Shown here: piece after piece, positions 44,222 through 63,255 of the stretch
How the letters are laid out: each line of letters opens with the position of its first letter
Position numbering within the stretch: position 1 is the first letter of the stretch
DNA from: Trichodelitschia bisporula
Lineage: Eukaryota
DNA: 64,000 nucleotides
Assembly (NCBI GenBank): GCA_010356995.1
Contig: ML996688.1
Span: forward strand, 1,400,579-1,464,578
Direction of reading: 5' to 3'
Program-made: the position numbers and the translations under genes
The notes under the pieces: generated by a model
Told to the model about the DNA's origin: nothing
Seen by the model: the letters and a program-made list of their open reading frames with translations, nothing else
Database searches by the model: none

Positions 44222-44474
44222 GGCTGCGGCTTGCTGGAGAGGCACAGTAGGAAGGTGTTCGATGGTGATGGGCGGCGGATGTCATAGTTTCGCTGCCAAC
44301 ATGAGTTCCACTCCGTAGGCCAAGGGCGGAGTTTAGTGCCAAGCTTCACTCCCTCTTGACCCCCAGACACCGGGAGATCGATTTGCCGACCCGCGAAAAA
44401 GTTCCCTCCTGCCTGGGGACTTTTTTCTCTTCGCGGTTGCGCTGAAGCTACATCAATTCTTTTGCAATACAACC

Positions 44475-46550
44475 ATGGGAGTCGGGCGTCGCATGAAGAA
44501 ACAAGGCCCTCCGGGCCTGCTCGATGAATCCTTGATCACGAAGAAACGTAAGGTGTCCGCCGCTGCACCCCCGGAGCCAGAAACTGCCAATGGCCGCAAC
44601 AAGAAGCGTCGCACGTCCGGCGAGGGCCTGGGTGTTAAGAAGCCTGGGAACAAGAACAGGGAAGGCAAGCCGAAGGGTGGGAATGACAGGAAAGAGAAAA
44701 AGAAAGGGCCCGCTGCGAACCCCCCCAAGGCGAAGGCTGCTAAGCCTACACCGGCGAATCGACAGAAGGCCGTCAAGGAGCCGTTACCCGCTGTTTCAGA
44801 CGAGGAGGACAATTTCGCCGGCTCAGACCTGGGGAGTGATGCTATTGACGACCCGGATGTCATGGAAGAAGAAATTGGCGGCGTCAATGTCACTGGCCTG
44901 GACGCTCTGGGGAGTGCCAGCGAGGCAGAGGATGACGAGTTCGACGATTTCGACTCTGATGTTGCGGATTCAGATACCAGGGAGAGGAGGGGAATGTGGT
45001 CAGAGGACGAGGACGACGAAGATGCGCAGGAAAAGCTTACTGCCGCCAACATCGAAGGCCTTACCCGGAAACTGGATCTCGAGCAGGCGCAAGAGGAGGC
45101 TGACGCGCAAGCCGAATTGGAGGAGCTCCAAACCAACATCACGGGCGATAGACCGAAGATTCTTGGAGATGAAGACGAAGACGAGGAGAGCCGCCCTCTG
45201 GCGCCAGATCTTCAATTGCTTCGTAGCCGCATCAACGACACTATCCGCGTACTGGACGACTTCGCCAAACTTGCCGAGGAGGGACGTTCGCGCGCCGAGT
45301 ACACCGCCCAACTTCTCAAAGACATTTGCGCCTACTACGGATACTCCGAGTTCCTTGCTGAAAAACTCTTGAACCTTTTCTCTCCCCGTGAAGCCTTTGC
45401 CTTCTTTGAGGCCAACGAAACACCCCGTCCTCTTGTCATCCGCACGAATACCCTCCGCACCCATCGTCGCGAGCTTGCGCAAATTTTGATAAACCGTGGT
45501 GTTACCCTGGAGCCTGTCGGAAAATGGTCCAAGGTTGGGTTGCAGATCTTCGAATCTCAGGTTCCCCTGGGTGCTACGCCCGAATACCTTGCTGGCCACT
45601 ACATTCTGCAGGCCGCTTCCTCATTTCTGCCTGTCATGGCGCTTGCGCCGCAGGAAAATGAACGTGTTCTGGATATGGCTGCTGCTCCCGGTGGTAAGAC
45701 GACGCACATTGCGGCGCTCATGCGGAACACGGGCTGTGTCTTCGCCAACGATGCGAATAAGGAACGTTCTAAGGGTCTCATTGGTAACATCCACCGTATG
45801 GGCGTCAAGAACACCATTGTGTGCAACTACTCCGCTCTCGAATTCCCCCGCGTTATGGGCGGCTTCGACCGTGTGCTTCTGGATGCGCCTTGCTCTGGAA
45901 CCGGCGTCATTTCCAAGGACCAGAGTGTCAAGACCAACAAGACGGAGTTGGACTTCATCAAGCTGCCCCACCTGCAGAAGCAACTGCTACTCGCGGCCAT
46001 CGACTCCGTCGACCACTCAAGCAAGACCGGCGGCTATATCGTCTACTCGACGTGCAGCGTGACCGTTGAAGAGAACGAGCAAGTTGTCCATTACGCACTG
46101 ATGAAGCGTCCGAACGTCAAGCTCGTGTCGACAGGCCTGGTCTTCGGCAAAGAAGGCTTCACGCGGCACATGGGCAAGGTGTTCCATCCCAGCTTGAAGG
46201 AGACCCGTCGGTACTATCCGCACACGTATAACGTCGACGGCTTTTTCGTTGCCAAGTTCAAGAAGGTTGCTCCTACGAAGGCCGGTGCCGTACATGCGGA
46301 TTCGAGTGTGAAGGCGTCCACGACTGACGAAGTCCCGGTTGATCGGACACCGATTTTGGAGGAGGGTAAGGAGGAGGAGGATGACTTTGCTGGGTTTGAT
46401 GAGGAGGAAGATGCGAAGATTATTGAGCGTGCGAAGAGGGCGAGTTTGAGGCGGAAGGGCAAGGATCCGAGGGCATTGGGCAGGAAGGGGAAGAAGAGCG
46501 AGAAGAGCGAGAAGAGCGAGAAGGCTGAAAAGGCTGAAAAGGCCAAGTAG
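44475..46550 (+). CDS. NOP2: 25S rRNA m5C methyltransferase Nop2
   Basis: MGVGRRMKKQGPP, GATPEYLAGHY, LDMAAAPGGKT, DRVLLDAPCSG and YSTCS. Confidence 0.97.
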   Translation: MGVGRRMKKQGPPGLLDESLITKKRKVSAAAPPEPETANGRNKKRRTSGEGLGVKKPGNKNREGKPKGGNDRKEKKKGPAANPPKAKAAKPTPANRQKAVKEPLPAVSDEEDNFAGSDLGSDAIDDPDVMEEEIGGVNVTGLDALGSASEAEDDEFDDFDSDVADSDTRERRGMWSEDEDDEDAQEKLTAANIEGLTRKLDLEQAQEEADAQAELEELQTNITGDRPKILGDEDEDEESRPLAPDLQLLRSRINDTIRVLDDFAKLAEEGRSRAEYTAQLLKDICAYYGYSEFLAEKLLNLFSPREAFAFFEANETPRPLVIRTNTLRTHRRELAQILINRGVTLEPVGKWSKVGLQIFESQVPLGATPEYLAGHYILQAASSFLPVMALAPQENERVLDMAAAPGGKTTHIAALMRNTGCVFANDANKERSKGLIGNIHRMGVKNTIVCNYSALEFPRVMGGFDRVLLDAPCSGTGVISKDQSVKTNKTELDFIKLPHLQKQLLLAAIDSVDHSSKTGGYIVYSTCSVTVEENEQVVHYALMKRPNVKLVSTGLVFGKEGFTRHMGKVFHPSLKETRRYYPHTYNVDGFFVAKFKKVAPTKAGAVHADSSVKASTTDEVPVDRTPILEEGKEEEDDFAGFDEEEDAKIIERAKRASLRRKGKDPRALGRKGKKSEKSEKSEKAEKAEKAK

Positions 46551-46854: not shown

Positions 46855-47445
46855 TCAAGCGTTCTCAACCTTCTCGACGGCGCCTTCATCCACTGCTTCC
46901 CCCAGCTCAGCCTTGTCCTCCTCAGTACTCTCCGACACCTTCTTGCGCTTCTCCACTGAGGCGTCATCATTCGACGATCCAAGTTTGACGTCGATGTCCG
47001 TATCTTCCGGAGTTGCGCGCTTGCGCTTATTCCCTGCACGAGTCCTCTTGGGCGCGGCCTTCTTCTTCGGAGTCGCTTGCGGTGATGGGAGACCCTCCTC
47101 TTTCGGCGGAGGGGTCCCGCTGGACTTGGGTCGGATGGGGCCCCCGCCTCTGCAGACAGCGGGGTTGATCCCGTGTGCCTTGAGAAGACATTCCCAACGC
47201 TTGGCTCTATGGAGCTATTAGCAACCGAACTTTATCACAGATGGAGTTAGGCCTTTCTCACGCTGCAGCTTTGCCAATGTTCAACTCTTTTGCGACAGCG
47301 TCGAAGTTCACCTAGGATATGGATTAGTGCACGGACAATTCCCGGTCTGGCATGTCTTTGCCCTGCCACTTTCGGCATGCCGAAGGCATGAAAGAAGATA
47401 GCCCACTACATCGTACGCCGGGGTTGGGTTCGTCGAAGGAGCCAT
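46855..47445 (-). CDS. Small Myb/SANT-like protein with a basic tail (triad gene 1, 161 aa)
   Basis: Exons 47445-47362, 47311-47262 and 47206-46855 (first intron GC-AG) give YLLSCLRHAESGR|VNFDAVAKELNIGKAAA|AKRWECLLKAHGI...TPKKKAAPKRTRAGNKRKR. Confidence 0.75.
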
Positions 47446-48016
47446 GTTGATAGAGAGTTGGATTGATGGAAGGTGATGTGAAAAGAAAGATGGTGGGGTG
47501 GTCTTGGTCTCATATACCAATCCACTCAACAGCCATCTGGTTGCCGTGGCCGTGGACGAGCACGAGAACCTGCATGTCCGGCAAGGTTAACTTTCAGCCT
47601 TGAGTGCAACTGGATTGTCCTGGATTGACCTGGATTGATCCCCACGCAGGGAAGTGGTGACTCAAAGCGGAAATCTGATGGCCCGATTTTAGCCCAGACG
47701 ACCAACAGACGTAACTTGGACACTACGGAGGAGCTGTTTGAAATTCCAAACCCAACAGTGATCTGCACAGACGCCTCCAGGAAGCCTAAAAGTTTAATTC
47801 TCGAATAGTCAATCCGATGCTTGCGTACGTCCAGTTGCTCCATGCGAACTCTCACTGCGGTACAACTTGCCGCATACGGACAGGATCAGACCATACTTTT
47901 CAGGTTGGATTTTATACTAATCACAAGAAATGGCATAGGTCCCACCCAAACTCCCAAGTTCTATCCGAGGACACCGACGCAGACACAGTTAAGCCCCTCC
48001 CCCACAATACCGTCCC

Positions 48017-48588
48017 TCAAAGCGACTCAGCCTTTACGATTATGGGTGCATCTGACGTACCCGCCTCAACCTTGATCGTCGATGCCTGATCCGTCGCCGG
48101 CTCAGCACCAATCTCAGTCTTCACTGCACTCTTATCGTCCTCCTCCACATCCTCGTCTTTCACCTCTCCCTTCACATCCAACTTCTCGCGCTTGACCCGA
48201 CGCCCAGTGGGAAACTCGGCATCCGCATCAGCTTCACTAAGTCTCCGCTTTATCCGGGTACGCCGGATGGGTTCATCCTCGCTGGTATCGTCGAGAACTT
48301 TCTTGCCCTTCATCCCCTTCTTTCCCTTCCCATCCGCGGGCGTTGAACGTTGCCGAGTGGGTAAGTCATCCATGACCTTGCGGAGGCGGTGGAATCTCAT
48401 TCGCGCTGCGTGCCCATTGCTGATGCTGTTGGAGGAGGCGACTATGCTCCAGTCGATCTAGTGCCCGTCGTCAGCCTCACTCACCGTCTGTATGCCCGAC
48501 GGCACGTAAGGATGTAACTCACATGCTTGACCTCCAGTTGTTTGATGATGGCGTAGAGGAACTCCACATTCTGCTTATCGGTGGGCAT
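48017..48588 (-). CDS. Small Myb/SANT-like protein with a basic/acidic tail (triad gene 2, 168 aa)
   Basis: Intron 48522-48458; MPTDKQNVEFLYAIIKQLEVKH|IDWSIVASSNSISNGHAARMRFHRLRKVM. Confidence 0.82.
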
Positions 48589-49681
48589 GACTGCGGTCTC
48601 ACTTGAGGAGCGAGCGAGCAAAAGACAGTGAGGTTGGAGGACTTTCTTCTCTGGCACGGTATCTGGATCTCTGGACACGGCACTGCTGAGTGAACCCAGA
48701 ACGGTGGCAGAGGCGGATCACGCTGCCTTATTAACCGCTGAGAACAGTACTGGACAAACCTAGTGAACGTTCATCCTCCTGTGTGTTTGGCCGCGTCCGC
48801 GACCTGAAGGCTTGTTCAAAGCTGTCTTTATCCCGCGCTTGTTTGCCTCCGACATGTTTGCGCCTGCGCCGGCAACCATGCTATCTTCACTCTCAGAGCA
48901 TTGTCGGTGCCGTGGGTTTCTGGACGAGGTGCAGGTAAATAATGCCGATATGCCTTTGTGCTGCGGTTCGGGAAGATGCGTCAAAGAATCGCCGATGAGA
49001 CATGGATGTACTGTTAAGGCAGCGTACGGTGTGGATGACAATGGCAAGATAAAGTCACAATATCTCCATGAGTAGCGCTGATCGTTCATGGTGGGCACAT
49101 TGTGAAAGGGGCCGGGTAGGCTGGCCCACAGGGCTACTGTCACTCAGGAAGCCAAACCGTTCGCACCGGTTCTTTCGTACGCTGTACCGATTGCTTTTGC
49201 ATGCTTTGGGGTTTGCTTTGTGGCTTGGGTTTTATTCCGCGGGTTGGTGAGGCTGCCGTAAGGAGTGCGTTTCTGCTGGTTTCTCGGTGTTGGTGGAGTG
49301 TACCAGGGCACTTGCTTGATTTGGTCTTTGATTCAGGGTGCAATGCGTGCCTTTCACGTTCTGTGCGAACTCAACGCAGTTGGGTGGCGATATGGACGTG
49401 CATGCGCGAGATTAGCAAAACATAATGTCGAATGTTAGGAAAACGACGTTCTTGATTGCAAATACAGTATGACTCCTAGAGTAAGAGCTTAATCATTCCA
49501 ATACTCAAGCAGAACAGAAAGATCAACTCATCACCACAAAATAGCAAATACAACTCCTTAGATACATGCTAACAGTTTCAGTGCCAGCCAACCGCTCGTG
49601 AAATCATCCTCCCATTCCACCCCCAGCTTCTTCATGCCATCTCGTACTTGAAATGAGTAAAAGGGGGATTAGCATATGGCG

Positions 49682-50298
49682 TCACCCGATGCTTGCCTGC
49701 TCAAGACTGTCGAGGTAGTCAGTGCCATACTCCGGTTTAACCTCACCAGAGTGCAGGTACTCTTAGAACGATGTATCAAAACCGGTTCTAAATGTGGAGA
49801 TCTTCTGAGGCGAAGGCTTTTTGGGCGAAGGCTTCTTCACCACACGACCCGCTACAACAACGCCTGCAACACCACGACCTATGTGGGTGAATACGACGCA
49901 TGTACTACTGTGGATGGCTGGCAAAATGGCATACCTTTTGACTCCTTCTTGGGTGTCGTCTTCTTAACCTCTTTCTGATGGCGAGGCCAGCGCGCGCTGC
50001 TGGGTTGAAACGAGCAACTGCTCGCCTGTCCACTTTCGATTGCCTTCGCCAACACCTTGACTTTACGAAAAAAACCTTCGACGGCATCATAGGTGGCGGG
50101 CGGGCCGAACACATGCGAAATGGAAGCAAAGTCTATCTGGATAGCAATACCAATCAGACTCGTTGCACGATTGATAATGGGCGGGGATTATGAAGCGGAA
50201 GAAGATGTCTTACCTTTCCATTTTTTTTCACAATGTCAAGGTTCGACACTGGCGAAAAGGCGTTCAACATTCTTTTGATCTTTCCAATTGATACCCAT
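49682..50298 (-). pseudogene. Frameshifted third small Myb/SANT-like gene (triad gene 3)
   Basis: MGINWKDQKNVERLFASV hits TGA at 50238-50236. The adjacent frame continues LDIVKKNGK|IDFASISHVFGPPATYDAVEGFFRKVK with intact introns 50213-50137 and 49934-49879. TAA at 49765-49763 is followed by more coding-like sequence. Confidence 0.65.
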
Positions 50299-51872
50299 GG
50301 TTCAAGATGGTGTGGTTAACGAGCTTGTGGGGTGAAAAGCTGAGTGCGGCCGGTGAGAAGGACTTGTCGAGTGCAAAGGGATGGGGATGATAGTAGGAAG
50401 GTAGAAACTGAGAGTGGAAGACTGAACTGACAGGCTGTAGAATGGAATTGGGATCTGTGAGAAGTTTTCGTCCGAGTGCATAACTCCACGGAGCTGGGCG
50501 ACTAAATGGTCGAGGGAGAGGCATATTTGCCCCTGAAGCATGATCAGCCGAGTTAACATCATCTCCAAACATCCTTCATTACTCCATGAACACAGTCTCC
50601 CGTGGGCATCATATCGCTACTCGAGTACCAGCCTCCAGAATACCAAACGGATGTTCGCCAAGTTGTGAAGATGGTTGATTCGGGGGCCATATGCGTATAG
50701 CCACAGACGCCAACCCCGTTCCCCGTCCCCATTACCGTTCGACGGCATTAGTTCCCGGTTTCCCCCCCGCTTGACGTACAGCGGCGCCGTCATGCACATA
50801 CCCGACCCACATATCCGCCTTGCAAAGCCGTCATCATGGGGCAGTGATAGGCAGAATGTAGGATCATGTGAGCAAAGCCTCAAAGACTCTAAGCCCCGCA
50901 ACACTAAGATGTGGCCTATCCTAGGCCACGGGGAAGTTTGATAAGTCTCCGCTATCGGGGTGAGGCCATAGTTTGTCGCCATCACACGGAATGCTGTTGT
51001 TGTGGCGTACCCGTCAGTATGTTACCACCGTGACGGGGCGCAACGCGAACCTCTACGGCTGGGGTTGTCTCCACGCTTCTCCCCTGCATGCAATCGCATA
51101 TGCGGATAAAGATCGCAATCATTGGCGTTAAGGGTGCATGACCTGTGCGTAGGAAAGTTAGTAAATCGGAATCGATTAGCACGAGAATGATATGTACCTA
51201 TGTCAGCCGACATCGCGTCCAGGGAGGTCAATTAGTGCTTCCTTAGCTAGCTGAGCGTAGTCGTAGCATCCCGGGGTCGTTCGGCAGCGCGGCCCGGGAC
51301 GAAGATACCCCCACCGTGAGGCTTTGCTCGTGCCAGCTGATGTTGATACGGCTGGGTACTTCGACGCAAGGTCGTCGTTGAGCGGCCTTCGTACCACCGT
51401 GGTTCTTCTCCGCATATTTCAGCCTTCGGGCAAAAAGGGAAAAAGTCAATTGTGCAACCACCCGTTGTCATTTGGCGATACAGCACGCGGGGGTTTCGGG
51501 TTAGTGATACTCTCACGAAACTCAACAGGTCCTATTTGGCGCTCCCTAGCATGCAGCCGCGTGAGCTTGGCATGTCGCATTTGGGTGGCTGGCGTGCAGT
51601 GATCCAATAGTAAGGCGAGCCTTACAGCCTCGACCTTTTTTTCCTTTTTCGTGCCTGTCTGGGTGATATCATCCACACCGACACACGCAGGGGTATGGGA
51701 TGTAACCGGATGCACTTTACAAACGCCCACAAAAGGCTTCCAAAGAAACCGGGCGCTCGTGCCGATCTGGACGGTGTCACTGGCGGCGAGGGTTGAAGGA
51801 GTGCATGCCGTCCGAAGACAAGATTTCCTTGCACCGGCAGGGGAGAGAACGGGCAAGGATACTTTCACAGAG

Positions 51873-54800
51873 CTATTCAGATTTCGACCACAGTGCATAG
51901 ATCTCGTGAGACCCGAGCACCTTGTCAACCAGAACATGCTCCCCAGAATAGCTGAACGGAATCCTGGACTCTTTCATCACAGCAGGGTCAATCAGCTTGC
52001 TGCTCAGCTTGGTCATGAGCGCACCCGGCGGGACTACCAGGGCTTGCCCATCCAAAAGAGGGCGGCGCTCAAGCAGATCGGGCCCGCAGAGATACTTCAG
52101 CTGATCTTGAAGGTCAACAATGCCGGAGGCCAGGGCCTCGTCGGCTAGGCTGAAGCCAGGGAAGCGGCATCGTATTATGCGCGCCTGGGCTTCGTTCCAT
52201 ACCTCCAGCTCGGCGCGAAAATCAGCTATCGGAGGCCGACACTCGATGCGAAGAATGATGCCAGGCCACGAATCATTCGAAGTCGGCCTAGAATCGAGGC
52301 TGCGGCGCTCGTGAATAGTCAGAATAGACCCGCTCGTAACTTCGTAGAAGTCTCCGCCAGCGGACGGGAGTTTCAACTCTGCTTGATCCAGACGCAGGAC
52401 AAAGTCGCTTTCTGTGGTGTATAGCAGCCACTTAGTCTGGTTGCGTACGAAGGCACAGATCGCCGCAGACTTGCCATGTCCGAAGTTAGGTGGTCCTGGT
52501 AATACCAAGGTTTGGCTGGCCCACGGTGTAGCACGGACTCCTCCGGATCCGATGTACACGCTAAATCGCTCTGCAGCGGATGAAATGCACTCGTGGCCGA
52601 ACTTCTTAGCCTGTTGCCATGCACGAAGTACTGCAGCATGCTCGGATAGCTCATCATCCTTGCCCACATCCTGCACACTGAAGTGGCTGTATTCACCAGG
52701 GCTTGATGACTGCAACACAGTGAGCCAGAATCTTCACATGGAGGACGTGGCTTGTTAACTCACCTTCCAGTCCCAGGAAACCCCGTAGTAGTCGAGCGTA
52801 TCCATAGACAGAGCGGCCCGACTTACTTGGTTAAAGTGATGCGAATTGTCGGCTGACATATGTCGGCGCCCCCAATCAAACTTTGAAGGCACTCCCATCT
52901 CAGGAGACCAGACCGTGCATACCGTGAGCATAGCCGGGGCTATCTGCCCGTCTCTGTAGGTCTCCAGCTGACACCAGCTGCATGCTTTGTGAAAGCACAC
53001 CAGGCAATTGCGAGTGATCATGGGGCGAGCTGCGCACATGCAGCAGGTCCAAGGCGCTGCGCTTCTCAAGCTCTGGGTATAGGGCGAAGAATTCAAAGAT
53101 GATGACTGGGGGCGGGAAAGCGAAGAACCTGTCCATGAGCGTTGCTGTTGCGGCGGCTGAGGACCGGGAACGGACTCATGAAGCCGGTTTGTCGAAGAGC
53201 GTCGCTGGAAGGAACGCCGTGTAATCTCATCCTGAGCGATATCTAGGCCAAGAGCAAAGTACTCGCTAAATTGAGAAGTCAGCATCGACCTTTTGGGCAG
53301 CAAAATGGTTCACGGCAGCGTCGACACAGTTTGAAAGGCCGGGAAGGTGAATCAAACTCACTTGAGAATTGCTTTGTACATATGCCACAGAGATTTCTGA
53401 GGAGTGGTTAGCATTCCACCTTAGAAAGTCGCCACCCTGCTTACCGTATACACACAGAAGATGACCTGCTTTAGGCTCGTTTCCTTTTCCTCCTCTAAGT
53501 ATCGCTTAACCTCGTCAACCGCAATCTCGGCGGCCTCCGCAGCAAACGACCCCCGATTAAGGTTGGCAAGCGCAAGAGATTTTAACCCCGCACGGGAAGC
53601 CATTTCGAGGCACGCCCGGTATTGGCGACGAAGCACATGCTTTTGACGTGCTTTGGCAGTGAGGCTCGGGGGAGCACCGACGCTGTGGATAACCTTGGAG
53701 CAGGGCAGATAGTGACCATCGGTCATGACGGCGTCCCCTTCACCACAGTCGGGAAGTTGAGCACAGTCACTCTGGAGTAGAGGTCCAGCAGCGTTGAACA
53801 CTGCCGCCCGGAGTTGAGAAACGCCAATGATGCCTAGCCTTTTCGTTGCGGAGATGGCGATAGCCTCAACATCAAGCTTGGATATGTCGTGTTTCACCAA
53901 GCTTATCCGGTCGGTAATCTGAAGTCTCTGTATATGTGACTCGAGAACGGCAGGGGGCGATGTCGAGCGCTTCTTTTGCGGTTGATCAACAGGAGTAGGT
54001 ACCTCAACTGGTGATCTAGTTGCCGGTTCAACTGGTATGAGCGGTTGAACGGATGTCGCTGTTGATGGTTGAGAAGACTGCTCCGATGGCGAGGACGTGG
54101 ACGGCCTGGGAGGAAAGAAGCGGCTAAGACGGCCAAATTAGTGCCCCAACGTTCGAACTACCGAATGGCCTAGGTCTTCACTTACGGAATTGCCTGTTCA
54201 TATGCAACTCTAATGTCTTCGGAAAAGACGCAGAAAACGATGCGGTCAAATTTCTGTCCTGCCTCACTGTCCAGGAGCGATCGTGCTTCATGAGCGGCAA
54301 TGAGAGCCCCGGTAAAGGGAGGGCACGCAAGACTTCCAGTCAATAGCGACGGAATTGCTATGCTACGCACCCCATTCTCCACTGCAAGGGCAAATATGCG
54401 GCGATAGAGTTTTCGGAGAAAGGCCTCGCCATCCGGAAGTGCCGTGGGCCAAGGTACTCCAGCAGCATGAAAGATGAGTTTGCAAGGCAGTTTGTAGCCC
54501 TTGGTCACCACGACTGATCCAGGTTTGCACTGGCCTATAGCCTTCAAGTCGTTGGCAAGTTCAGGGCCTGCAGCATTCGAAACTGCTCGACTCACGGTCT
54601 TGCGTCCACCAGGTGACAGATCAACATGCGTGGGACAAGCAATGGCGTCGACTTGCATCTGGACGATATCCGCAAAGACGAAAGAGAGTTTGCTGTTGGC
54701 GCTCATAGAATATTCCGCCTTAGCCTGGGAGGATGGTGCAAGCTGTCTGTGTTGATAGAGTTCGTCAACGGTTCCTATCATGTGCAGGGGAGTCGGTTTG

Positions 54801-57163
54801 GTGACCTGTCGTTGGCGGAGTTCTTCAAGTTCGTGGAAATCTCGAGGTTCAATCAGTATCATGGGGTTCGCAGCAAGCTGATCCGTCTTGTTTTTGGAGC
54901 TTTCAGCGGTCAGTTAATGGTCTTTGAAGATGATTGAAGCCATGCCTTGGATCAGTGTATAGCACGAAGTGCAACGCGACATCCAAAATCTTTTTGAATG
55001 TCTCAAAGCGCTTTATGAGGTTGAAACCTTCTTGAGCGAAATGGTTTACCAAACTGTCCCAGTTTCTCTCATTGAGTAAATTGTCCTCCGCACCGCGGCT
55101 TGACAGCTCGAATTGTCGGGAGTAGCCATCAAGAGTCATGGAAAGAGTGTCGTGCAGCAATTCAAGGGGGGTTTCAAGGTCAAGTCGGTATCGTTCTTTA
55201 TCAAAACTTCCGAGCCCCGTGGCAAGTGCATGAACCTTAGAAGATATCTTGAGAAGTTGTTGCGTAGTACTGTGAATGACGACGTAGTTCTTTAGGGTTG
55301 GGAGCTGGTGATTAAGCGCATTGAGTTGGCTAACGAATGCATCGACGCCCTCCACAAACTTGAGTAGACGTGAGGCAAGCGGTATATCATTACTCTCATT
55401 CTCCGCACTGCCTTGGCCGGAGCTGACGGAATCCGACCCGGATGTAGTGTTGTCGTATCCTTCTGAAACCGCGAGCGAGTTTGCATCTCCTTGCTGGCTG
55501 TTGTCGACATCTCCGATAAGAAGCACATCCCGCGGAAGTGAAAAGAGAGCTATGCGTTCGAGGTGATTAGCGATGTGACTTTGCAACCCACCATGGACTG
55601 TAGTGGAATCGGCGTAGCAGATGGGACAGTGAGCACGACTGTCAATTGCGGTTGTCCTGGCAGCTGTCACAACATTGGCAAGCTGAGAGTATGTGAGATC
55701 CTTGCCATGATCCACTTCCAGATGACGTTCGAGAGCGCTTCTGGTCTTGAATACAGCATCTATGTGTACCGGGCACTGCCAGAGTTGACGGTGGGATGTT
55801 GCCTCATGCTCTAGCCACTCACGACGGCTGCGGAATATTTGGTCCGGATGCTCGCAATCGGGATATGTACACATGTATGGTGACAAATCTTGCAGCAGAT
55901 GAGACCTAGATATATGTCAACATCAGAAAAAGACACGTACGGACGAGATGCCTACCTCCATCCCCTTTCGGTTTCTCCATATCTTGACGGACATATGATG
56001 AAGCAATAAGGACACTCGAAGTCTCTGCCGCTTTTTGCGTTCGCTGGTATCCCAGGAATTTCGATGGCTCTGCCTGAAAGATCGCGGGCGGTCGTCGCAA
56101 CTGAGGTAACGGACATGGAATCCACTGCTTCATCCAGGCTGACGTGGTGCTTAGTCGCTTCCGTCGCAGAGAGAAGAGTTTGGGGTGTCCGGTCTGTGGG
56201 CGCAACGGGGACATGAGCGGCATCGCGGATTTCCGTGACAGTATGAGCATCGTTGGCCTGATGGAGTCCCGCCTCCTTCTGCTCATCTCGTGCTTCATTT
56301 TCCAGCTCCAAGCGCAGTTCCTTAGCTACAGCGGTGAGCTTTTCTCGATGTCGTCGCCAGTATCGAAACTGTTGACGCCGACGAGTGACTGCCCTGCCCA
56401 ACCGTTTGACTATGAAGTCATCCTTGGCAAACGGAGCAGAACGACCCTGACGGAGGTCTCGGATCGTGTCCTCAACGAACTGCCTGTCGTATGTAGCGTA
56501 CTTTTCGATGAGATCAACACCGGTTTCTCTGTCCATCTCTTTGTACGAAGCCGCCTTCACTCCACGGGAACGGACAGTGGGGCTTCGAATCCTTATGGAT
56601 AACTTGTAGAGGTTATCAATGATGTCCACTACCTCTGAGAGTCGCATAGCAAGTTCATATCGCGGCACATCATCGTCGTCTACGTCGGTACTGGCCAAGG
56701 AGCTGACAGAATCGCCCATGTCACTCCATCCATCATCGGAAACATCGTCATTTGTCGATCTGAGCTCCTCCATAGGCAACCTGTGGCCATGCACGACATC
56801 ATGAGCTACATGCACCTTAGCCATCAAGCAAATGAGAAGGAGCAAGTCAGTGGTCAAACCTTCAATAAGATTCTGATTCAGCTCCGTCAACAGCTTCGTC
56901 ACATTCTCCATCAACAACGGAGACTCTTTGAGGCGATAATCCAGTGATGAGTGCCCGCGCTGCAGCGCTCCCAGATTGCCACACCAAACCCGAAAACGTC
57001 CTTGTTCATCGACGAGCTCCGACGTGGGCATCGCATTCTGGAAGGTATCGGATCCCGTTGCCAACCCAGCCAAAACGTTCTTAAACAGTATCACACATTC
57101 TGATGCCAGACTACTGATAGTCCATACCGTTCCCGGAGTCTCGTTCATGGCCGTTGCCTTCAT
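51873..57163 (-). CDS. ~1,626-aa multidomain protein: helical N-terminus, C2H2 zinc fingers, two macrodomains, Cys-rich zinc ribbon, unknown C-terminal domain
   Basis: Introns 56859-56806, 55955-55906, 54945-54900 (GC-AG), 54185-54124, 53444-53397, 53361-53266 and 52763-52710 leave 4881 nt (1627 codons) in one frame. Motifs GRFRVWCGNLGA..SLDYRL, FECPYCF, DLSPYMCTYPDC, CPIC..HIANHLE, NAAGPEL..TKGYKLPCK, NAAGPLL..TDGHYLPCS and WTCCMC..CLVCFHKACSWC. The 3' end is less certain. Confidence 0.78.
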
Positions 57164-57748
57164 TGCGGAAAGTTGAATTTGAAAAGGTCCCGTGATTAAG
57201 ATGAGGTTGAGAACTTTGAGATTTGCGCGAGAGCTGTCTCTGCACTGAGAGCCGATGGCGAGACCCCAGACCTCGCTGGGTTCATGTTACATATGTATGT
57301 ATCGGCGTCGAGCAAGGCACTTTCTCTGACTCAAGTGGCTCTGGCAGGCTGTGATGGCTGATGGCCACGACTGACGGCGGGGCAGACTCAAGATGTCGGG
57401 GGCGGTGCCTCGATGTATCTTGGCGAGGATGGGAGCATTTCAAATCCCTTGCAGGCCGTGAGAGTGGCGGTGTCGGTTGCTGCGTGCGAATCGTCCCGTC
57501 TGGCCGCGCCACTACTGCAGGCGGATTCTGGACGTCTGGTCTTTAATATCTTCGTCCTTCCCCACCTAACTCCTTCCTCGATCTCTCCGGAATCAGCCTG
57601 TCCAACTTGGCCAGTTCGACTAATAGAACGTCGGATTTATAGCACAGTTTCTGGCCCCCAAATCAGCCGTACCCCGCACCTGGACATGAGCATATCACTG
57701 TAGAAGAGTGCAACCCACCTGTCTCACGAAGCAGTCAAAGTCAACGCA

Positions 57749-59663
57749 ATGAGCGGCATCGAAATCGCCGGCCTCATTCTTGGAGGGCTGCCGCTTGTCA
57801 TCTCGGCGCTGGAGCATTACAACAACGGGCTCGATCCCATCAAGGCGTTCTACCGATGGGAGCGCGAGCTGCCGCAGTATATCCGTAAGCTGCGTAACCA
57901 GCATGTTCACTACCAGCAGACACTGCGCCTGCTCCTCGAGCCCATCACCGACGAACATGAGCTGGCGGATATGATTGCCAACGCCGATGCGCCGGCGTGG
58001 ACCGACGACCGCATCGCGCAGGCGCTGGAGGAGCGACTTGGTGATTCATATGTTGCTTATGGGGATACGGTGGCGGAGATCAGTCGTGTCATGCGTACAA
58101 TTGCAAGCAAGCTGGACGTCGGAAGCACGAATGTAAGTGCCCGCACAATGGCGAAATGAGACGAGACAAAGACAGGGTTCCAATTCTTACTCTCGTAGAC
58201 CTCTCGGAGTGACCTCGAAGCTCTACTCCTCTCAAAGCAGCGCCCCTCGGGCCGAAACGGCTTCGAATGGAAGAAACGCATCAAGTTCGGCATGTCCAAG
58301 CGTGCCATCAAGACGCTCCTCGACGAGCTGGACGGCTATGTCAAGGAACTAGAGCGCTTCACCGAGCGCGGCGAGAAGCTTGAATCGCAACAAGCGGTTG
58401 GCGCAGGCTCAGGCTCTGTCTCAGGCACCTGGAAAACGTCGTTCGTGGCCCCGCTGGAGCATGTACGTGCTGGTGCACGGCTGCTGCATCAGGCTATGAC
58501 GCAGTGGAATTGCGCATGCGAAGCGTTGCATTCCACACATATCAAGCTCGAGCAGCGGGTTATCGTATCGCGCTCTAAGACACCGAAGCGCCCCAAGAAT
58601 GCGGATGAGCTGCGGTTTCGGGTGTCGGTCACTACGGCTGAGACTACTTTCAAGTGGAATGATGTCGAGGTTTCGGTCCGGCACACCGAACCCGAATCAC
58701 CACCACCCGAGTACGAACAGTACGTATTCCATCCCTCTCTCGTATAGTCTAAATCCTAACCCACCTAGAAACTTGCCGGAGCTCAAACACTCCGCAACAG
58801 CAATATCTGCCTATTCCGTCAAGTCGGTCTCAACCATGAAGTCCTCCCTGACAATGAAATCCTCCGTCACATTCAGCGTAACCGCCCCCTCCATCCCCCC
58901 CAGCGTCCACGACCTCAGCCTCCTCGAAATCGACAACATATGCCACACCCTCCGGCAAGCCTCCCGCACCACCCCACTCCTAGGCTTCTGCCTCGACCCT
59001 TCCGGTAAGCTACGCGGAATATATCCCGTTTCAGACGAGGATACCACCCTCAAGCCCCCTCCACAAGGCACCATCACGCTGGACGAGCTGCTCCGCAGCC
59101 CCGTCATCAAAGGCAAAAGGGCGCGTCTCAGCAGGAAAGACCGCCTCGCGCTCGCCGTAAACATCGCTTCAAGTACATTACAGCTATGTACAACGCCCTG
59201 GCTGCCCGCGCACTGCTACTGCGCATCGGACATCGTCTTCCCGCGCACAGACGGGAGCCCCGCCTTCGACATCGAGTCCGCATATCTGCGCTCCACCCCC
59301 TACGGGCCGGACACAAAGGGCACCAAGCCACTCTTAAACAACGACAACGCCACGCTCCTCGCGCTCGGCCTCATGCTACTAGAACTCTACTTCGGCGAAT
59401 CGAGCGACACCCACACGGAGACCGAAGACCTAGGCCCTAACAACAAACCAAACGCCTTTACTGCGCTCGCCGTCGCCCAGCGCTGGGTGCTCGACGAGCG
59501 TGATAATCTCTCCGCTGGCTTCTTGCAGGCTGTGTCTCATTGTTTGCGCTGCTTTGCTGATCCACGTAGTAGCCTGCATGACCCGCCCTTTTTGCAGGCT
59601 GCTATTGATGAAATCATTGTTCCCCTCCAAGTCGAGCTGTGGCAGTTCACTGGTGCGCGGTAA
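57749..59663 (+). CDS. ~599-aa protein with a HeLo-like N-terminus and a DUF7580-like (kinase C-lobe-like) C-terminus
   Basis: Introns 58133-58198 and 58720-58768 leave 600 codons. Motifs MSGIEIAGLILGGLPLVISALEHY, IDNIC, TITLDELL, RLALAVNIASSTLQL..TPWL, DIVF, LLALGLMLLELYFG and AVSHCLRC. Confidence 0.82.
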
Positions 59664-59683
59664 CCGCGGATTCACGGCGCCGC

Positions 59684-62600
59684 CTACGAAGATGCCCCGT
59701 ACGCCTCGGCTAGCTGCGCTGTATGCTCGTCCAACCCGCGCTTCGCCTGCACAGCGAGTTCGCGCCGCTCGCTAGCCATGTTTTCAGAGTAGCAGAGCGC
59801 GAGGAGGGTGCGCAGCTGCCCCTGATCGAAGTTCCTTTCTCGCGCGGCAGCAACCACGGCAGCAGGTCCTGCGGCGAAGAGTTCGAAGTAGGCCTTTGAG
59901 CGCATGAGAAGGGCATCCGGCTCCACGTTCTTGAGATTATGCTGCACGACCAAGATATTGAGCTGGACGCGGGCGCAGCCGTTTTCATTCATGATGGAGA
60001 TGTTGGAAGCGGCGTGGATAAAGAGGTGGTCGAGGAGATGGGCGAGACCGGTAATGATGAATGCTTGTTGCGGGGCTTGGAGGTGCGTGGCGAAGACTTC
60101 GTCGAAGGTGATCATGTCGGCGTTCAGGGCTGATATCTCCGGATCGGGTTCCTGCAGCCGCTGCTCTAGGCGGAAGGTGCGGCTCATGGAGCGCTTGATG
60201 TGGAAAAAGACGTGGGCGCGCGTTTCGAGATGTAGCATGCGAAGCACCTTCGCCGCGAGCTGTTGGTAGGAGGATACGACGCCGTCGAATGCACTGTATT
60301 GTTAGCATAGCATATATGGTTGAAAAAAGGGAGCATACACAGCGGAGTCTTGATTTAGCGGCAAGAATGCGATGCCTTCTTCTGTAGACTTTTCGGCACT
60401 GGGCACCAGCGTCCACCGTCGCTGGAATGTGTACCTAGATTCGCGCCGTGAGGAATCGATAGACTGGGGGCTGATGTGGCGCATGCGTGCGATTTTGCTG
60501 GCTAGCCATTTCTGCGAGACGTCAGTTTCCGAGCGCCACGTCAAATGACAGGTATACGTACCATGCTGGTGTACATGAGGCACAGCGCCGCCATCGTGCG
60601 CTGGTCCGAGATAACGTCGATCTCATCGATCGTAACATCGCTCGTGGCCTGAATGAGCAACTTGGTTTCCTGCTCGAGCAACTCGCCCGCAGACCCCTTA
60701 TCCGCATTCGCCAGCGCCCTAAGCAACTCCTGCACCTGATCCTCATCATCCAGCATCGCAGCAAACTTCAGCCTCTTCCCCGTCTGCGGATGCGGCACGA
60801 GGCGCGAGACAAGAGCCCTAAACCAGCCATAGCACTTATCATAGTACGTAACCATCTGATTGATAACCAGTTGGCTGAACGCCTGATCATGCGGCAGATT
60901 GCAAAGCATCTTGCAAAACGCAGTGATGAGCGTGAAGAACTTGCCCGTGCCCTTGAAGATGGGCTTTTTGGCCAGCGTCGCCCACTTGGGATCCGCCTGG
61001 AAGGCGTCTGATTCGATGAAGGTCTGGGCCGAAAGCTCCATGAGGGTTTCCTCGAGCTGCGGTAGGAAGACATTGATTAGGAAGTCGTCAAGGAAGGAGG
61101 TTAATGTGCTGAGTGCAATGTCCGATGTCGGTGGCACCACCTCCTTCAGCCGGTTCAGGAACTTCAGCGACGGCGGCAGCAAAATGCCCATATTAAAGAC
61201 ACTTGGTTCGACGAGCAGCTTGTGGCCCGTAGCGCTGCCATCGTACGCATTAGCGGTGCTGGTCTGCACCTCCGCGGGGCGTTTGGAGTCAGACACGAGG
61301 CCCGGAACCGACGACTTTAGAATCTGCTCCAGGGCGTCGCGCTCCGACTCGAGGTCTGCAGACTTAGGGTCCAGGTCGGCTAGCTTGAAGAGCTTCTTGT
61401 TCTTGTCCCTGTTGCGCTGGAACACGCTACCCGCCTTCTCACCGGGGCCGCCGCGGAAGTTTTCGCCATCGGTGGCGAGGTAGTCGTGCAGAAGGGAGCG
61501 GATCTCGCTCTGGTATAGCTTCCAGAGCTCTCGGAAGCCTCCGGTAAGAGACATCGAGCCACGTAGACCCTCACGCTTGATGATGCCAGAAATGACCTCA
61601 TGTACCACACGATGCCCTTCGGCGATCGCCTCGAACCGCGCATACAACGTGCCGAACAAGTCGTTCAGAACCGTAGCCCGAGGGCCATTATCCGTGTCGA
61701 TGGATCCCATGTTGTCCTTCATTCCACGTAAACTGCTCGGATGGCGCTGGTCAACTTCCGCACTCGTCTTCTCCACGATGCGGAATAGCTCCATCGGTAG
61801 GCGCTGGTTGATGGTTTCCACGGCCACGTCGAGCTGGTTTAAGCTGTGTAGTGACTCCACAAGAAGTTGGATGTATGCGAATGATTCTGCTTCAGGGTTC
61901 CGCGTCGGGTCATCCTGAATCGGTTTTGATGTGTCCAGCTTATCCAGAAACTGATACAACAGACGTCCCCTCGTATCCAAGCCGTTTGGCTGGACCTCGG
62001 CATTCTTTGCATGAGTGGCATACTCCTTCCAGCGGTTCTCGCAGTATGGCGATTTGAGGTAAAGGTGGTTATGAAGCTCTTCCCGGAGAATGTCGCCCAA
62101 AGAATGCTCCTGGTTGCTCAGGTAAACCTTCAGATCCCCTAACGCCCCAATCTTGTCCATCTCCGCCTTACGAATAGACAGCAGCGCATCCTGGAGCAAC
62201 TCAACCGCGCTGAGAAAGCGCTTCTCGGAGATGCGCGCCTCCAACTTCTCAGGAATGCCCTGAAGATTCTCACTGCCACTTATTAGCTCTCATCCATGCC
62301 CACATCCGCCGCCTTGCACTCACATCGCCGCCAGTACCTGCAACATATCATCATAATTCCTCGACGAAACCGCCAACTCCTGCAACTCCGGCTTCGACGC
62401 CGCAAGTGCCGTCTTCGCCTGCCCCAGCCCCGCCCTCAACGCCCTCAGCCTAACCTGACTCATCTGAATCGCAGCCTGAATACTATGAAATGTGCCAATC
62501 GACGAATTAAACCCCTGATGATGCTCATTAACAATCACCCTCAACGCACTCTGCAACTCCCTCTGCCTTGCGCGGAAACCCTCATACCGTCCCGCCAGCC

Positions 62601-63063
62601 CAAGCGAGCTCTCATCCAGCAACTGCAGTGCAACCTGCACCGGCACGCACTCCTCCCCCGTCATAACCCCCCACTCGTGCTGGATATCCCGAATCACAGC
62701 CTCCATCTGCTTGCTCCCATCGCCGGCACCCCCGGCTCCACGCCTCGTCGGACTCCGCTGCGCCAATCCCGCGCCCGTACTCCGCCTCTTCGCCTGCGAC
62801 CGCTCCAGACTCGTCGGCCGTGTCACAGCAGCCACAGCACTATTCCCAGCCACGCTGCGCGGCTCACCGCGCGGATCGCTCCGCGCATCGTCGGCGTACC
62901 CAGCATAGGAATCGGCACCATACCCGCCGGCGCGGCGCTCGCGGGGGCGGAAGGCGGGGCGGGATGTGCTGGGTTCGTCGGGTTGCGGGGTGTAGCCGTT
63001 TGTGTAGGAGGGGCCGTAGGCGGGGGTTGAGCCGGTGCGGAGGGAGTCGGGGAGGCGGGACAT
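59684..63063 (-). CDS. SEC8: Exocyst complex component Sec8
   Basis: CVPVQVALQLLDESSLG, VNEHHQGFNSSIGTF, EELHNHLYLKSPY, PEAESF, ATGHKLLVEPSVFN, FLDDFLINVFLPQ and LNILVVQHNL. Multi-exon. Confidence 0.96.
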
Positions 63064-63255
63064 TGTTGTGGTGTTATGTGTGGTTTAGAGGGTGGGGTAC
63101 ATTGCGGTTTGGGGTGGTTTGCGGATGGTGAGGGCGGGTTGGGGGTGGGATTGTGCGAGGATCGAGGTTGCAGGACAGTGCTGTGCTCGTGGCGGAGCGG
63201 ATGAGTTGACGTTCCGCGCCTGGTGGAGAGCTATCGACTTTCGAGGTAAGGTCGT

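Follow-up and report, generated by a model that had tools for sequence, protein, structure and literature searches.

Fungal het-S/nwd2 and gasdermin/protease clusters set a sensor of variable architecture beside a membrane-targeting executioner (PMC10197012), and in wheat, R3NLR and R3AK form a pair of an NLR (a nucleotide-binding receptor with leucine-rich repeats) and an MLKL protein (bioRxiv 10.64898/2026.08.07.743466). Head-to-head NLR pairs are rare in Sordariales, where they account for 13 of 225 two-NLR clusters (PMC12258605). Fungal HELL-kinase and HELL-pseudokinase proteins are mentioned in a figure legend of a 2025 review, which calls for wider study of HeLo and four-helix-bundle (4HB) proteins (PMC12881547). 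A 2026 review describes how fungi read ADP-ribosylation as unknown and suggests that erasers were adapted into readers (PMC13720257). Here, we analyzed a 64,000-nucleotide stretch of the Trichodelitschia bisporula genome (contig ML996688.1, positions 1,400,579 to 1,464,578 of the forward strand; hereafter the window), in which an earlier note had marked two divergent genes, called A and B below, as a possible ADP-ribose-linked immune module. We found that both genes are intact and expressed and form a conserved two-gene module whose products are predicted to bind each other, and the pair is thereby a promising candidate for a self-destruct switch that has not been described and might respond to ADP-ribose. 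No paper on the A-B pair or on DUF7580 was found by title and abstract start in the mostly open-access literature; the A N-terminal domain might be entered among the NLR N termini in the supplementary domain tables that accompany PMC9815663 and PMC12258605.

A head-to-head pair and its conservation

The two genes are transcribed away from each other from a short intergenic region:

51873..57163, minus strand: gene A, ATG at 57163 and stop at 51873, 8 exons, 1626 amino acids (aa), spliced frame free of internal stops
57163-56860, 56805-55956, 55905-54946, 54899-54186, 54123-53445, 53396-53362, 53265-52764, 52709-51873, minus strand: exons of gene A
57164..57748, no strand assigned: divergent intergenic region between A and B, ATG-to-ATG gap of exactly 585 bp, presumed common promoter
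57749..59663, plus strand: gene B, 599 aa, exons 57749-58132, 58199-58719, and 58769-59663, predicted MLKL-like architecture

The spacing of about 585 bp given in the earlier note thus proved exact. Contigs from two runs, X1 and X2, skip all nine predicted introns (7/7 in gene A and 2/2 in gene B), and therefore both genes are transcribed and spliced; the two runs derive from one sample, their RNA nature was guessed by the tool, and none of the runs listed as containing the sequence is recorded as RNA. Among the confirmed introns are one in-frame intron of 54 nucleotides (nt) and one GC-AG intron in gene A (46 nt, 54900-54945), which has an AAG acceptor. A single contig covers both genes plus the end of SEC8, which does not by itself demonstrate one transcript.

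The pairing recurs within this genome (25.8 Mb), which holds four DUF7580 matches and four loci with the A N-terminal domain; a full-length B query returned the same four, and all of these counts, obtained with family and single-protein queries, are lower bounds. All four DUF7580 loci, on four contigs, are arranged head-to-head with A-type loci, with ~400-600 bp between the matched starts. In 22 species, A and B records from a single assembly could be compared; the orthologues carry consecutive locus tags or accessions in 20 of them, and in 18 of these 20 the annotated A includes a macrodomain. Second copies of B occur in Glonium, Zopfia, and Ophiobolus. A relative of B was found at 34 metagenome loci. 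At the 22 loci with at least 995 bases upstream of B (14 distinct sequences), A is divergent in every case, with gaps of 335-843 bp, and the other 12 loci have 707 bases or fewer upstream. Of these 22 loci, 13 extend far enough into A to include a macrodomain and all 13 show one; the remaining nine stop before the zinc fingers or ~500 bases or less past them. Thus, the survey for head-to-head linkage that the earlier note had called for found the arrangement at every paralogous locus and at every informative metagenome locus, and adjacent identifiers in most species. The orthologue lists suggest a broad and stable presence of the pair, and the distances of A and B correlate (Spearman 0.90), a value that shared ancestry alone can yield.

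Other neighbors of B bear on how this linkage is read. KNR4/SMI1 lies directly downstream of B in 12/34 metagenome loci (e.g., L020:13963-15555), so that many relatives share synteny here. The KNR4 of this genome is found at C2:1,319,677, ~139 kb off, while A remained beside B.

A constant cassette and exchangeable tails in gene A

Gene A encodes the following parts, all on the minus strand:

56324..57118, minus strand: N-terminal helical domain (~aa 16-262), a coiled-coil or four-helix-like bundle whose first helix is not hydrophobic; by prediction, the surface that binds B
55524..56032, minus strand: zinc-finger block of the AcuF-like C2H2 type (~aa 360-512); weak PF13894 match, PF26082 in homologues
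54946..55397, minus strand: lineage-specific segment (~aa 555-705), unmatched in 53 A homologues
54188..54709, minus strand: macrodomain 1, MacroD-derived; PF01661 E 1.3e-19; adenine-binding Asp retained, loop-1 Asn and loop-2 aromatic gone
53250..53924, minus strand: macrodomain 2; PF01661 E 1.8e-14; two introns inside; adenine-binding Asp retained, hydrolase signature absent
52965..53048, minus strand: small Cys4 zinc-ribbon-like motif (~aa 1254-1281), read from the sequence; matched in 3/53 homologues
51876..52709, minus strand: C-terminal domain of 278 aa, family unassigned; weak matches in 3/53 homologues

The order of helical bundle, disordered linker, and AcuF-like C2H2 fingers is constant among A proteins, and the tail behind this cassette varies. 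In the model of orthologue P0012, the A bundle resembles the Rx coiled-coil domain (Rx-CC; Z 11.6, root-mean-square deviation (rmsd) 2.9, 106 aligned residues), MLKL (Z 8.3, which is middling for a bundle; rmsd 3.4, 100 aligned), and HET-S (Z 6.7). The C2H2 fingers ascribed to A by the earlier note are supported by near homologues, which carry the AcuF-like C2H2 family PF26082, but the match on the window's own exon is weak (PF13894, E 6.5e-4). Over 18 orthologue pairs, the zinc-finger block has a mean identity of 60%. Two other parts of the protein remained without a family: the segment at aa 555-705 gave only a weak Pfam match below cut-off and no homologue among the 53, and the C-terminal domain gave no Pfam match and no usable Atlas match.

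The tails of the three A paralogues, read as unspliced frames with assumed gene limits, are mutually unrelated. The paralogue at C6 387,000-393,600 has an ankyrin and VHS tail with a C2H2/kinase frame downstream; that at C9 1,017,000-1,025,000 combines ULD_2 with a nearly identical trio of PHD repeats and with C2H2 fingers; and that on C20, running from ~246,396 on the plus strand opposite a B paralogue, shows in its readable part the cassette followed by PNP_UDP and NACHT frames, an NLR-type tail. The tails of A in other fungi, surveyed in 29 of the 53 homologues, include kinase, TPR, SH3, AAA, RGS, annexin, BAG, or PAH domains, and the macrodomain clade variably adds RPA32-C, HSF, RRM, EVH1-like, Zn2Cys6, or winged-helix domains. 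No exon of A showed NACHT or NB-ARC, and a scan of 19 macrodomain orthologues likewise gave neither; the sole NACHT frame is the one beside the C20 paralogue. Thus, behind a cassette that stays the same, A can carry any of numerous interchangeable tails, the macrodomains being one of them, an exchangeability that the earlier note had overlooked.

A zinc-finger match at C9:587985 was considered as a fifth A and rejected as a different gene, with no A helical domain and no B within the 9.9 kb read. The frame there (C9:585,486-589,166; 1227 aa) is open and mostly of low complexity and carries an A-type zinc-finger block, with no A-type bundle and no Pfam match.

Both macrodomains that had been noticed in A match PF01661 above the Pfam cut-offs. 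The nearest solved relative of macrodomain 1 is human MACROD1 (E 9.6e-21), and the two domains are 33-36% identical to a canonical stand-alone MacroD encoded elsewhere in this genome. Macrodomains occur in 33 of the 53 longer A homologues, two in 24 and one in 9, and every one of the 26 named bearers is a Dothideomycete. PARP-family matches were found at three loci of this genome. A second stand-alone macrodomain gene, at C3:832,134, is of a type unlike MacroD (45 bits).

The hydrolase signature was defined as Asn or Ser at loop 1 together with a hydrophobic-aromatic pair in loop 2, following PMC10221186, whose loop-1 Gly was tabulated and left unscored. In this alignment-dependent comparison, the signature is present in the stand-alone MacroD and in 0/60 integrated macrodomains. 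The aspartate through which macrodomains bind adenine is retained in 57/60, including both window domains. The integrated macrodomains therefore look like hydrolase-dead readers or decoys. In macrodomain 2 of the orthologues, the adenine Asp (23/24), the loop-2 Gly (24/24), and the stacking aromatic (22/24) are kept, while the loop-1 Asn has become Asp in 21/24 and the loop-2 aromatic Leu in 24/24, a pattern of constraint that fits an ADP-ribose reader. Loop 1 of macrodomain 1, by comparison, is highly variable between orthologues.

The window macrodomains form the two longest branches of the macrodomain tree (1.40 and 1.42; median 0.27; one fragment row omitted) and lack motif residues that the orthologues retain; they are thus more eroded than those of, for instance, Glonium or Lepidopterella, and therefore this species may hold a weakened macrodomain copy.

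The first macrodomain of the Aulographum A (P0004, residues 634-805) is nearly canonical at loop 1 and falls beside stand-alone MacroD in the tree (99/89), suggesting that the housekeeping MacroD was captured afresh.

Gene B and its predicted contact with A

Gene B is divided into two regions:

57749..58399, plus strand: N-terminal four-helix bundle (~aa 1-195), its first helix conserved, hydrophobic, and rich in Gly; candidate killer domain of HeLo-like type
58442..59660, plus strand: DUF7580 region, predicted degenerate protein-kinase fold without HRD or DFG; PF24476 E 1.6e-22

The hydrophobic helix with which B had been said to open was recovered, with a best 19-residue hydropathy of 1.96. 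Over 16 orthologue pairs, the first-helix hydropathy averages 1.83 for B versus 0.70 for A, and a hydrophobic first helix was also found in the three B paralogues. This helix is the most conserved part of B, with 72% identity over 18 orthologues.

The fold of B was read from a model of the Glonium orthologue (P0061) built with 80 sequences (predicted local distance difference test (pLDDT) 83.3; predicted template-modeling score 0.70), in which four long helices in residues 3-195 precede a beta/alpha domain. The modeled bundle resembles the Solanaceae domain (SD) of Sw-5b (Z 11.1, rmsd 3.0, 124 aligned) and Rx-CC (Z 9.2, rmsd 3.1, 106 aligned), Z values of 9-11 being commonplace among helical bundles. 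HeLo (PF14479) matches were obtained in 20/80 B orthologues at E up to 0.1, all of them weak (best E 0.0025), and the window's own B exon 1 gave no HeLo match in Pfam. The second Atlas match of B is a cluster that is 93% HeLo (score 0.94, 178/256 features). Beyond the bundle, every listed Foldseek match of the B model is a kinase fold; the kinase-like part aligns with BRAF (Z 9.7, rmsd 5.0, 191 aligned), and its best kinase matches are tied among RAF/TKL-type kinases. At the positions assigned to the catalytic loop and DFG, the 80 aligned sequences read T/S-P-W and H-P-Y, so that both HRD and DFG are missing. The DUF7580 match in gene B lies above the Pfam cut-off, and judged from the modeled fold, DUF7580 is a pseudokinase domain, which gives B the layout of an MLKL-like protein. 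The description of B as a HeLo-like/DUF7580 protein therefore stands for the bundle, with weak HeLo similarity, but DUF7580 is predicted to be a pseudokinase fold, which had been overlooked, and not an extension of HeLo.

When B was compared as a profile with solved sequences, none fell below E 0.02, and none of the Foldseek matches to the A and B orthologue models attained E 0.001. MLKL and HET-S were not among the top 50 matches in the fold searches of the B model, in which the bundle was searched as part of the whole. The B family comprises 2,125 clusters at 50% identity (E up to 1e-30). Two canonical HeLo (PF14479) matches in this genome, C15:552,271 and C15:726,895, are distinct from the four B genes.

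We modeled the A-B complex with the Glonium proteins (B 1-575 and A 5-420), folded without alignments. The complex scored 0.65, as compared to 0.00 for the best of three controls; the runs share at least 74% of contacts, and partner pLDDT is at least 61. The mark used for a complex is reached by 51/78 solved versus 2/108 mismatched microbial pairs and by 39/65 versus 2/126 eukaryotic pairs, and also by 7/44 blind neighbor pairs. The pass is unlikely to reflect memorized structures, because the sequence search gave no solved relative of B. In the predicted interface, the A bundle contacts helix 2 of the B bundle and the C-lobe of the pseudokinase; in window numbering, the predicted interface residues include R46, R49, and H52 of B and W60, D162, and Y168 of A. 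Over 18 orthologue pairs, the interface columns are better conserved than the rest of the domains (0.85 versus 0.72 for B and 0.86 versus 0.66 for A), in a comparison that took in all residues, buried ones included. The window proteins are 73-76% identical at these columns versus 48% elsewhere. The model thus supports, and does not show, A-B binding, and we consider it very probable that the two proteins are physical partners. Together, the orthologues are linked, the N terminus models as a bundle, an interaction is predicted, and both genes are transcribed in one sample, in each case the reverse of an outcome that the earlier note had listed as refuting it.

The pair is flanked by a NOP2-like gene (44337-46550) and SEC8 (59684-63084), as had been described; a conserved SEC8/NOP2 neighborhood, however, was rejected, with no match in the 34 metagenome loci, many of which are short. 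Gene B and SEC8 are convergent, with ends 20 bp apart (59663-59684), and their 3' ends probably overlap, an expressed contig crossing both. A spliced Myb-like gene (PF22980) lies on the minus strand at 46855-48460, and the ~3 kb between it and gene A (48700-51800) contain no identified gene. Among 15 intergenic regions, the top shared 6-mers occur in 13, versus at most 11 in mononucleotide shuffles, a slight excess.

Proposed mechanism, alternatives, and known systems

We propose that the module would be a sensor/executioner pair built without NLR, amyloid, or protease. B would be an MLKL-like executioner, with its hydrophobic first helix, four-helix bundle, and pseudokinase, and the N-terminal bundle of A would grip helix 2 of the B bundle and the pseudokinase C-lobe, keeping the killer domain packed. 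Behind its fixed cassette of bundle and zinc fingers, A would bear exchangeable bait domains, which in this Dothideomycete clade would be one or two catalytically dead MacroD-derived domains. Once the bait bound ADP-ribose or an ADP-ribose-modified protein, or was struck by a hostile protein that targets macrodomains, A would free or activate B, and the first helix of B would permeabilize the membrane. The trigger could originate from an enemy ADP-ribosyltransferase or from the fungus's own PARP.

The clamp and its release, the cell death, and the nature of the trigger are drawn by analogy with described systems, and the parts of the proposal differ in strength. A role of the pair in cell death or defense appears probable, and the chances that A and B are a sensor and an executioner of non-NLR type, with A clamping the bundle of B, seem to us evenly balanced. 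That ADP-ribose is the trigger is a tentative suggestion, and it is similarly doubtful, if conceivable, that Dothideomycetes converted copies of the eraser MacroD into readers of ADP-ribose and, by way of a zinc-finger adaptor that is not an NLR, coupled these readers to a pore former resembling MLKL.

Several points weigh against this proposal. The folds and the A-B contact are predicted, toxicity, binding, and phenotype rest on inference, and the complex was folded with the proteins of a relative. The bundle similarities are of a commonplace level, the HeLo similarity is weak, some blind neighbor pairs also pass as complexes, and the interface comparison is not limited to the surface. In Lasiodiplodia, A and B are non-consecutive (same contig, accessions 146 apart), and in Geoglossum, B lies on another contig than A, which has no macrodomain and sits on a contig of 4.5 kb. 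Since the site is syntenic beside KNR4 in many loci, the linkage may in part be plain microsynteny. The macrodomain pair is stably inherited across Dothideomycetes, unlike a polymorphic het gene, and the patchy distribution that the earlier note had anticipated was not found. Last, the eroded macrodomains of the window may no longer bind ADP-ribose.

Stable inheritance and synteny are also what a non-lethal signaling or gene-regulatory unit would show, in which A and B form a real complex, B is a pseudokinase scaffold, A is a nuclear protein with zinc fingers, and its macrodomains recruit A to ADP-ribosylated chromatin or repair sites. The domains that the macrodomain clade adds are often of nuclear type or bind nucleic acids (RPA32 C-terminal, HSF, RRM, Zn2Cys6, winged helix), both genes are transcribed in one sample, and the genome has PARP-family genes. 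However, such a unit does not account for mutually unrelated paralogous tails, one of which is an NLR-type PNP_UDP/NACHT block, and a scaffold needs no conserved hydrophobic first helix on B. We regard this explanation as unlikely.

Less likely still is an immune switch in which ADP-ribose is not the signal and the macrodomains are decoys for effectors that target MacroD-like proteins or are vestigial here; it differs from the proposed switch solely in the trigger. The very variable loop 1 of macrodomain 1 in the orthologues and the strong erosion of the window copies would agree with it, as would the Aulographum domain that groups with stand-alone MacroD, suggesting re-capture of a housekeeping domain. 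In contrast, the orthologues' macrodomain 2 keeps the Asp, Gly, and aromatic residues almost throughout, as expected of a pocket in use.

A selfish poison-antidote element, with B as poison and A as antidote, would explain the tight two-gene linkage, the several copies per genome, and the predicted direct binding, but the orthologous, syntenic inheritance across orders and the tracking of A and B distances (for which shared ancestry may suffice) speak against it, an antidote needs no large variable tails, and we hold it to be highly improbable. That A and B are mere neighbors held by a common promoter or microsynteny, with no joint function, is just as improbable, since the pair is kept at four paralogous loci on four contigs, KNR4, likewise a persistent neighbor (12/34 metagenome loci), moved off in this genome while A did not, and the predicted complex stands clear of its controls with a conserved interface.

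If the proposed switch is correct, fungi possess an integrated-decoy system that resembles that of plants but does without NLRs, and the range of A tails becomes a list of enemy targets. Should the MacroD copies indeed have become readers coupled to B, the pair would also provide a dedicated fungal ADP-ribose reader and a direct switch from ADP-ribose to necroptosis, and it would be one of a broad group of fungal receptor pairs with integrated decoys. A is a candidate regulator for the large family of B-type HELL-pseudokinase-like proteins, and a single two-gene construct makes two questions testable, the reading of ADP-ribosylation by fungi and the role of HeLo/4HB proteins.

When compared with known systems, B shares with animal MLKL, plant MLKLs, and fungal HELL-kinase/pseudokinase proteins the succession of a bundle and a catalytically dead kinase fold, as far as the models indicate. 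Unlike in the MLKL systems, its kinase fold is far more degenerate, with no HRD or DFG in the 80 aligned sequences, and its partner is not a RIPK3-like kinase. The macrodomains resemble MacroD hydrolases and the non-catalytic macrodomains of PARP14 in fold and in the adenine-binding Asp (PMC10221186), and loop 2 of the orthologues' macrodomain 2, with Leu replacing the aromatic, resembles that of PARP14 macrodomain 2. They differ from both in being tandem, in having lost the hydrolase signature, and in their fusion partner, which is not a PARP but a zinc-finger protein paired with an MLKL-like one. As conserved hydrolase-dead copies of MacroD, they fit the eraser-to-reader prediction given in PMC13720257. 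With the het-S/nwd2 and gasdermin/protease clusters, the pair has in common a sensor of variable architecture beside a putative membrane-targeting executioner; it differs in that direct contact between helical bundles is predicted, in place of amyloid templating or proteolysis. No amyloid motif was noticed in A or B, in which no dedicated amyloid scan was made. In arrangement, the pair resembles wheat R3NLR/R3AK (bioRxiv 10.64898/2026.08.07.743466) and plant head-to-head sensor/helper NLR pairs with integrated decoys: the genes are paired, the putative sensor is joined with an executor of MLKL type and carries bait domains, and contact between bundles is predicted. Unlike NLR pairs, A has no NB-ARC/NACHT or leucine-rich repeats, and its constant part consists of a bundle and C2H2 fingers. 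By this comparison, the pair would function in the manner of a plant pair that has an integrated decoy and an executor of MLKL type, and it is not an NLR system.

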